Below are positions 8,516 to 9,847 of a stretch of DNA of 64,000 nucleotides, one piece after another; position 1 is the stretch's first letter; the number at the start of each line of letters is the position of its first letter. The notes beneath the pieces are model-generated. The model saw only the letters and a program-made list of their open reading frames with translations, did no database searches and had not been told where the DNA came from. Made by a program: the position numbers and the translations under genes. Source of the stretch: Escherichia phage BYEP01; the sequence record OR757453.1; one strand, given 5' to 3'.

Positions 8516-9096
8516 TGATTAAATTGGTATTCGCTTATTCTCCAACTAAAACGGTCGAAGGCTTTAATGAATTAGCATTCGGTTTAGGTGATGGTTTACC
8601 ATGGGGGCGAGTTAAAAAGGACCTCCAGAATTTTAAAGCTCGTACCGAAGGTACAATTATGATTATGGGTGCTAAAACGTTCCAGTCATTGCCTACATTA
8701 CTTCCCGGTCGTAGACATATTGTAGTGTGTGACCTTGAGCGTGATTATCCTGTAACTAAAGATGGCGATTTAGCACATTTCTATATTACTTGGGAGCAAT
8801 ATATAGATTACATTTCTGGCGACGAAATTCAAGTATCAATTTCTGGCACGCCATTCGAGACTATGCTTGATCAGAATTCTAATGTTAGCGTAATTGGCGG
8901 ACCCGCTCTACTATATGCTGCGTTACCTTATGCGGATGAAGTAGTTGTTTCCCGCATCGTTAAAAGGCATCGTGTTAATTCAACGGTTCAATTAGATGCA
9001 AGTTTTCTTGATGATATAAGCAAGCGTGAAATGGTTGAAACTCATTGGTATAAAATAGATGAAGTAACAACCCTTACGGAATCAGTATATAAATGA
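8515..9096 (+). CDS. frd: dihydrofolate reductase (193 aa)
   Basis: [59 protein letters not shown]... recognised as T4 DHFR. Confidence 0.95.
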
Positions 9097-9299
9097 GCAA
9101 TAAATTAAAAGTTAAGGATGTTCCTAATGCTATGGCCCTTTTTATTTGTCGGCAGATGCATCAAGGGCCTATGACACCAAAACAATATCTTAAAGGTGAG
9201 CGTTCTTTAGGATTTACTCGCAAAGCAAAACAAATGGTTAAATTAGGATATAAGCCTAACTTTGCCAAATATCCTTCTACATATTCTTGGATGAACTAA
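9093..9299 (+). CDS. hypothetical basic protein (68 aa) inserted between frd and td
   Basis: ATG overlaps frd stop (ATGA 9093-9096); stop overlaps td start (TAATG 9297-9301); [41 protein letters not shown]... Confidence 0.55.
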
Positions 9300-9847
9300 T
9301 GAAACAATACCAATTTTTAATTAAAGATATCCTGGAAAATGGCTATGAAACTGATGATCGAACAGGCACAGGAACAATTGCTCTGTTCGGTACTAAATTA
9401 CGCTGGGATTTAACTAAAGGTTTTCCTGCAGTAACGACTAAGAAGCTCGCCTGGAAAGCTTGTATTGCTGAGCTCCTTTGGTTTTTATCAGGAAGTACTA
9501 ACGTAAATGATTTACGATTAATTCAGCATAATTCATTAATTCAAGGTAAAACAGTCTGGGATGAAAATTACGAAAACCAAGCAAAAGATTTAGGATATCA
9601 TAGTGGTGAACTTGGTCCAATTTATGGAAAACAATGGCGTGATTTTGGTGGTGTAGATCAAATTGTAGAAGTTATTGATCGTATTAAAAAACTACCAAAT
9701 GATAGGCGTCAAATCGTTTCAGCATGGAATCCAGCTGAACTTAAATATATGGCATTACCGCCCTGTCATATGTTCTATCAGTTTAATGTGCGTAATGGTT
9801 ATCTTGACCTTCAGTGGTATCAACGATCAGTAGATGTTTTCTTGGGT
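9299..9847 (+). CDS. td: thymidylate synthase, exon 1 (183 codons)
   Basis: Track ORF 9287..9850 starts at TTG; ATG 9299 gives [31 protein letters not shown]...QRSVDVFLG, recognised as T4 Td exon 1; TAA at 9848-9850 is the first intron triplet. Confidence 0.93.

Follow-up and report, generated by a model that had tools for sequence, protein, structure and literature searches.

In bacteriophage T4 the genes frd and td reportedly overlap by the four bases ATGA, an arrangement that Purohit and Mathews are said to have described in 1984; the coding sequences of the T4 record do overlap in this way (GTATATAAATGAAACAATACC), as the initial annotation of the present locus had stated. Two described systems bear comparison with what we find at this junction. 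The PeSL-ORFan cassettes of T4-type phages (Arbiol et al. 2010, PMC2839356) possess a sigma-70-like early promoter together with a terminator of the stem-loop type, and recombine through them. In homing-endonuclease marker exclusion and co-conversion among T-even phages (PMC2993671, which also provides general background on the plasticity of T-even genomes), short tracts spread preferentially and have gene-conversion boundaries.

Reading along the window (the whole 64,000-nucleotide stretch analysed here, from Escherichia phage BYEP01, sequence record OR757453.1), we see that frd has the same 3′ end as in T4, ...GTATATAAATGA, and that its stop likewise overlaps the ATG of the next gene; in T4, however, that next gene is td, whereas here it is a 68-codon open reading frame, ORF68, with td coming after a further, TAATG overlap (Table 1). 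The first junction (9085–9104) reads ...GTATATAAATGAGCAATAAA... and the 3′ end of ORF68 ...TGGATGAACTAATGAAACAATACC; relative to the T4 junction, the window carries 206 additional bases at the frd/td boundary, and its Frd protein shows 94.8% amino acid identity to those of T4 and AR1. The translation first given for the frame opening at 9093 is exactly right, and its description as a small accessory gene for a basic protein is supported: T4 lacks the gene, which here is packed between its two neighbours, overlapping frd with its start codon and td with its stop. A second ATGA, at 9299–9302, had been put forward as the start of td: the td ATG does lie at 9299, but there is no ATGA stop/start overlap at this point. 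Since the stop of ORF68 is the TAA at 9297–9299, the td ATG overlaps it by a single base, and the second ‘ATGA’ consists only of the td start codon and the first A of a lysine codon. Once spliced (9299–9847 joined to 10111–10422), td encodes a protein of 286 amino acids that is collinear with the product of the intronless td of phage Nami, 283 of 287 positions being identical with the stop counted.

Table 1. Features of the frd–td region, numbered from the first base of the window
Feature	Position	Strand	Basis or remark
frd, dihydrofolate reductase, 193 aa	8515..9096	+	TGA stop 9094–9096 overlaps ORF68 start
ORF68, 68-codon gene, family phrog_9550	9093..9299	+	profile match, homologues, dN/dS, predicted structure
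ATGA overlap, frd stop/ORF68 start	9093..9096	+	read from sequence
TAATG junction, ORF68 stop TAA (9297–9299)/td start ATG (9299), 1-nt overlap	9297..9301	+	
Low-divergence patch, ORF68 + td codons 1–16, common to Tequatrovirus and Dhakavirus	9091..9345	+	alignments, Fisher tests
td exon 1, 183 codons	9299..9847	+	splicing, collinearity with Nami td
td group I intron, 263 nt, without I-TevI ORF	9848..10110	+	Rfam RF00028, 64 bits, E 5e-15
td exon 2	10111..10422	+	splicing, collinearity with Nami td

No promoter-like or terminator-like site was found on the plus strand between 8700 and 9850, and no Shine-Dalgarno sequence is evident upstream of the ORF68 start at 9093–9096. With its ATGA and TAATG overlaps, and with neither a promoter of its own nor a clear ribosome-binding site, ORF68 has the layout of a gene in a translationally coupled operon; given that promoter, terminator and clear Shine-Dalgarno are all lacking, its transcription would be shared with frd and td, and its translation would proceed by termination–reinitiation coupling. 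In being a small gene of no known function that is gained, lost and swapped as a module among close relatives it resembles the PeSL cassettes; unlike them it has neither of their two motifs, and sits inside a (predicted) translationally coupled operon of core-like metabolic genes. A cassette of the PeSL or moron type was set aside on the first of these grounds, ORF68 having no promoter and stem-loop terminator of its own.

Judged by homology and by its pattern of substitution, ORF68 is a genuine gene and not a chance reading frame. Residues 1–68 align to positions 1–68 of the 68 in the phrog_9550 profile (PHROGs v4; E 1.3e-45), and tblastn recovers homologues in 237 phage records, with full-length copies in intact frames in at least six phage genera. 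Searched by blastn, the 207 nt of the gene have matches in 164 phage records, and in 113 of these the identity is 99% or above; among the records listed, more than 40 carry a nucleotide sequence that is 100% identical, in the same frd–ORF–td position. Values of dN/dS fall between 0.05 and 0.28 overall: against the copies of Klebsiella phage Marfa, Enterobacter phage CIP9 and Serratia phage 4S, for which dS ranges from 0.9 to saturation, they are 0.08–0.19, and among those three copies themselves they reach 0.28, indicating that members of phrog_9550 have diverged and yet remain under purifying selection as proteins. The conserved positions of the family are K4, K6, P11, R20, K34, G40, M48, L51-G52-Y53 and P55; residue 26 is the one position to change recurrently (P, H, R, Y or S, and a five-residue insertion in the member P0009). 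Further afield, a 43% identical homologue is encoded in Phapecoctavirus (phAPEC8 gp235), and an exhaustive profile search uncovers more distant ones in unrelated phage contigs. The family is small, comprising 19 clusters at 90% identity; an HMM search of 1.8 billion proteins gave 10 real representatives at 50% identity, together with one spurious repeat protein (P0026).

The gene is thus already catalogued and annotated, in a family to which no function has been assigned, and the window copy is a standard member. It is labelled ‘hypothetical protein’ in, for example, Shigella phage pSs-1, Yersinia phage PYPS2T and Escherichia phage dhabil (dhabil_24); our literature searches found no paper on it. 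Several records call for correction. The frame is intact but unannotated in JS10 (L007 2001–2207) and JS98 (L013 998–1204), and in ACG-C40 (L027 1001–1207) is annotated only as a 42-amino acid fragment from an internal ATG; neither ‘DUF4858’, the label given in phage Shinka, nor ‘flagellar biosynthesis protein’, the one in PYPS2T, is supported, there being no Pfam match at E ≤ 1 and no relevant NCBIfam match to justify either. Shigella phage sb4 (L024 1001–1207) carries a copy with a premature stop (K54*) and five amino acid changes, and its td is fragmented too; this copy is probably degraded, whether through decay of the gene itself or a low-quality assembly.

The locus had at first been read as an insertion into the frd/td overlap, with a 4-bp duplication of ATGA as its mark. 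We find instead that the repeat common to both junctions is 5 nt long (AATGA), not 4, and with ATGA occurring 468 times in the window (36% GC), or 7.3 times per kb, a repeat of 4–5 nt carries no statistical weight alone. Moreover, these letters are simply the native starts of the two genes (ATG-AGC in ORF68, ATG-AAA in td). In every lineage ORF68 opens with ATGAGCAATAA, also behind different upstream genes (Marfa, CIP9, 4S), and in CIP9 and 4S its ATG overlaps the TGA of that different gene in the same ATGA manner; the ORF68/td junction, TAATGAAACAATA, is kept in JS10, Marfa and 4S. As ORF68 and td both natively start with ATGA, the ‘duplication’ is not an insertion scar. A transposon, IS or MITE with target-site duplication was likewise rejected: ATGAGC and ATGAAA are native and conserved, and there are no terminal inverted repeats, a search for these giving only imperfect AT-rich matches of 8–12 nt, none of them at the two ends.

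A wider comparison places the same gene in the same slot in five genera, with ORF68 homologues directly upstream of td in Tequatrovirus, Dhakavirus (immediately so in JS10 and JS98), Marfavirus, Kanagawavirus and Serratia phage 4S. Between frd and ORF68 we see one further frame in Marfavirus (117 amino acids) and one in Serratia phage 4S (126 amino acids), in the order frd, ORF, ORF68, td in both; Kanagawavirus phage CIP9 has two, running frd, gp061, gp060, gp059 (the ORF68 homologue), td. Most Tequatroviruses (363 records; AR1 and T2 among them) have a 115-amino acid ORF, AR1_242, at the frd/td junction; it is 44% identical to CIP9 gp061 (E 1e-30), and the five ORFs that separate frd from ORF68, or from td, in these phages all match a single family, phrog_1928. 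The contents of the slot follow a fixed order: frd – phrog_1928 (0–2 copies) – phrog_9550 (0–1 copy) – td. The array is complete in CIP9 and consists of a single phrog_1928 gene and ORF68 in Marfa and 4S; ORF68 stands alone in Dhakavirus and the window, a phrog_1928 gene stands alone in most Tequatroviruses (the AR1/T2 arrangement), and in T4 the slot is empty. The region is matched by 567 records, with ORF68 present in some 134–136 and the AR1 type in 363; the T4-type empty junction accounts for about 40–70, as estimated by subtraction.

The AR1/T2/T6-type gene is an alternative occupant of the slot, also absent from T4. Its product is unrelated to that of ORF68, and its setting differs: short non-coding spacers are present and td apparently has a ribosome-binding site of its own (as read from the sequence), unlike in the ORF68 allele. 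The diversity of AR1_242 is normal, most copies being 95–99% identical. Like the extra DNA of the window, the AR1-type insert is bounded by a short direct repeat, in this case TAAATGAAA. In AR1 itself (L001 1794–1805) the frd stop is followed by ATGAAATAA, a vestigial copy of td codons 1 and 2 with a stop after them, which forms part of this 9-nt repeat.

The explanation we favour, and regard as probable, is that ORF68 is an accessory gene in an old, variable frd–td slot of T4-like phages, a slot shared by two gene families; that the overlap seen in T4 is this slot emptied; that the ATGA motifs are native; and that the allele found here spread recently. The T4 overlap is a minority state. Its junction can be derived from that of the window by deletion between the AATGA repeats and from that of AR1 by deletion between the 9-nt TAAATGAAA repeats, and deletions of this kind, across short direct repeats, are classic in T4; being reachable from either filled state in this way, the T4 junction is more simply read as derived, and probably is so. 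Of the roughly 206 bp originally described as inserted, the extra length relative to T4 holds, but a fresh insertion marked by a duplicated ATGA is not supported: compared across relatives, the frd–td junction shows ORF68 as the older state, with the spread of the present allele as the recent event. Saying this, the polarity (loss in T4 against gain elsewhere) is the one most simply given by parsimony across a handful of genera, and within Tequatrovirus ORF68 may, given the youth of the allele, have come by insertion into an empty or AR1-type slot. Indel polymorphism between frd and td is, as such, ordinary T-even genome plasticity. What our analysis adds is the two-family model of the slot, the reading of the textbook T4 overlap as a derived minority state (and so of the ‘extra’ frame as part of something older, correcting a T4-centred view) and a measure of how cleanly the allele has crossed between genera.

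That last point emerges from the contrast between ORF68 and its flanks. Between the window and Dhakavirus JS10 we count 5 mismatches over 206 positions of ORF68, compared with 117/578 in frd and 114/548 in td exon 1. Taking all pairs among ten phages (six Tequatrovirus and four Dhakavirus, the sb4 copy being excluded from the ORF68 range), nucleotide divergence is 0–3.9% in ORF68, 2.6–26% in frd and 0.2–25% in td exon 1. The same holds for dS between the window and the Dhakaviruses JS10 and IME341, which is 0.11–0.14 in ORF68, 0.86–1.04 in frd and about 2.2 in td exon 1; Fisher tests give p values from 1e-6 to 1e-18. The left edge of the patch is exact: over the final 63 nt of frd the four Dhakaviruses share ten fixed differences, the last Dhakavirus-specific one falling at 9090 and none beyond it within the patch. 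The right edge lies inside td (~9345), with slightly different end points among phages. Over this stretch the ORF68-linked haplotypes of both genera encode F6 and L12 in Td, compared with D6 and F12 in T4, two changes that hitch-hike with ORF68. The N-terminus of td in T4 and AR1 is MKQYQDLIKDIFENG, from which the ORF68-linked haplotype differs at window positions 9299–9345. Beyond these two genera the gene behaves quite ordinarily: its nucleotide identity to Marfa, CIP9 and 4S is 79, 75 and 72%, and that of td 70, 75 and 75%; with divergence in the three distant genera so similar to that of td, ORF68 is not intrinsically frozen.

Low divergence in ORF68 set against flanks differing by up to 26% points to recent lateral spread: we conclude that the allele, together with the first ~47 nt of td, was recently exchanged by Dhakavirus and Tequatrovirus and has spread within both, presumably when co-infecting phages recombined. 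This retains one half of the cassette idea of the initial annotation, a discrete module that moves laterally (0–3.9% against 3–26% in the flanks), and drops the other, an insertion marked by ATGA. The locus also offers a clear-cut natural case in which an allele the size of one gene has crossed a genus boundary of 20% divergence with almost no flanking DNA. An exact left edge at the frd stop is unlike simple homologous crossing-over in flanks that are 80% identical; microhomology, trimming through repeated recombination, or selection against chimeric Frd proteins may each account for it. As in endonuclease-driven marker exclusion, the patch is a short, preferentially spreading tract with conversion-type boundaries, but here the resemblance ends: ORF68 has no nuclease domain, td is not co-converted up to the intron site, and the same allele is carried by Nami and JS10, in which td has no intron. 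Co-conversion driven by I-TevI was rejected for these last two reasons, the intervening td exon 1 being diverged. A free-standing homing endonuclease (seg, mob or HNH) was rejected as well, the product being only 68 amino acids long with no GIY-YIG, HNH or LAGLIDADG domain; in Pfam, none of 22 family members has a significant match, and no nuclease family appears even at E ≤ 1.

The strongest competitor, which we nonetheless consider unlikely, is that a T4-like ATGA overlap of frd and td, in the Tequatrovirus lineage at any rate, received the gene as a cassette from a Dhakavirus-like donor, the ends being joined by microhomology (AAATGA to the left, AATGAAACAATA to the right), such that the repeats are insertion joints after all. 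An allele some ten-fold younger than its flanks (dS 0.11–0.14 against 0.86–2.2) is what this would produce, and the distribution fits too, every Dhakavirus record matched carrying ORF68 but only about a quarter of Tequatrovirus records; the exact left edge at the frd stop, in turn, suits microhomology better than crossing-over inside frd. Against this, the diversity of ORF68 is also low within Dhakavirus (1–1.9%, compared with 9–19% in frd), which makes that genus no obvious long-term donor; the ATGA and TAATG boundaries are native, and conserved where other genes precede ORF68; the slot is filled in distant genera, at a divergence similar to that of td; and the right edge lies inside td and varies among phages, as homologous exchange predicts. 

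Turning to the product, ORF68 encodes a protein of 7.9 kDa with a pI of 10.3 and a net charge of about +10.6 (13 Lys + Arg against 2 Asp + Glu). An AlphaFold2 model built from 21 family sequences has a pLDDT of 80 and positions three helices at residues 13–24, 29–38 and 43–50. This model finds only a family member in BFVD and nothing in the PDB with Foldseek; a sequence profile search of the PDB with ORF68 gave no match, nor did searches for a helix-turn-helix profile or fold, and NCBIfam has no relevant match to members of phrog_9550. The prediction is thus of a three-helix protein of orphan fold, with no match in sequence or structure. PADLOC matched none of 21 members, its library being one of host defence systems and hence no direct test of anti-defence. 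The distant homologues lie in same-strand blocks of small genes, or near genes for a PIF1-like helicase, DnaB or RNA ligase, and never beside td.

Our best guess is that the product is not an enzyme of nucleotide metabolism. Among the functional options, we tentatively put forward, whilst holding it somewhat short of probable, that ORF68 binds nucleic acid or an acidic partner and serves as an early or middle accessory factor in host takeover or counter-defence, a suggestion that draws on its charge, its size, its optional distribution and the evidence of a sweep. More doubtful is a bolder version in which ORF68 and the first 16 codons of td form a recently swept, laterally transferred module, spreading through the E. 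coli T-even phages of two genera by some strong advantage (for instance as a new counter-defence or takeover protein) with residue 26 under diversifying selection; were this true, residue 26 would be a specificity-determining site. Either way, we nominate phrog_9550 for functional screens of T-even accessory genes. It is improbable that ORF68 instead works together with thymidylate synthase or the dNTP-synthesising complex, such as in the role of a regulator or adaptor. In five genera it sits just upstream of td and its stop overlaps the td start, which would suit such a role, and the td 5′ haplotype (F6, L12) does travel with ORF68, but this linkage is what hitch-hiking predicts, and most Tequatroviruses, T4 included, manage without the gene. 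The homologues in Phapecoctavirus and five other phage contigs lie among small early or replication genes with td not nearby, and it is because distant homologues are never found beside td that a dedicated Td partner is unlikely.

Least probable is that the 206 bp are near-identical because they are preserved as nucleotides, whether for an RNA element, a site regulating td or a small RNA embedded there, and not through recent transfer, with the protein secondary: synonymous sites are almost invariant across two genera and the conserved patch does extend into the td translation-initiation region, but ORF68 has no thermodynamic sign of RNA structure (z = 0.18; 112 of 200 shuffled sequences fold equally well), no Rfam family beyond a 16-bit chance match, and no promoter or terminator, its synonymous sites are near saturation in Marfa, CIP9 and 4S whilst the protein is kept, and the distant homologues conserve the protein only.

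Several other genes of the window also have notable features. Gene 32 (6120–7265) reads as a 381-amino acid ORF, about 137 bp being absent near 7001–7005 that are present in every top match listed (495 records cover the query; each of the best 12 listed aligns as two pieces across ~537 nt). Lost with this DNA are the final 8 codons of gp32 (DLDDLLNDL*), the gene-32 terminator hairpin (GGGGACCCTAGAGGTCCCC followed by a run of T) and the promoter-like TTTACA ... TACTAT that precedes the next ORF, which leaves gp32 fused in frame to that downstream 76-amino acid ORF (MAKVDIDIV...); this could be a real deletion mutant or an artefact of assembly or editing. As for introns, I-TevI is present in the td introns of the relatives PYps15T, G3F9, fPS-2 and ACG-C40, and the td genes of Nami, JS10 and Marfa are intronless. 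In the window nrdB (14203–15685) is split into 225 and 159 amino acids by an ORF-less group I intron (~14862–15131+; RF00028, 68.7 bits) that has no I-TevIII ORF. The nrdA gene (10980–14151) is likewise in two pieces, 10980–12413 (477 amino acids) and 13162–14151 (329 amino acids), separated by an ORF for an HNH homing endonuclease (12462–13172, 236 amino acids), with no group I intron detected there by Rfam; this split arrangement is annotated in 34 related records, and resembles the split nrdA of Aeromonas phage Aeh1.
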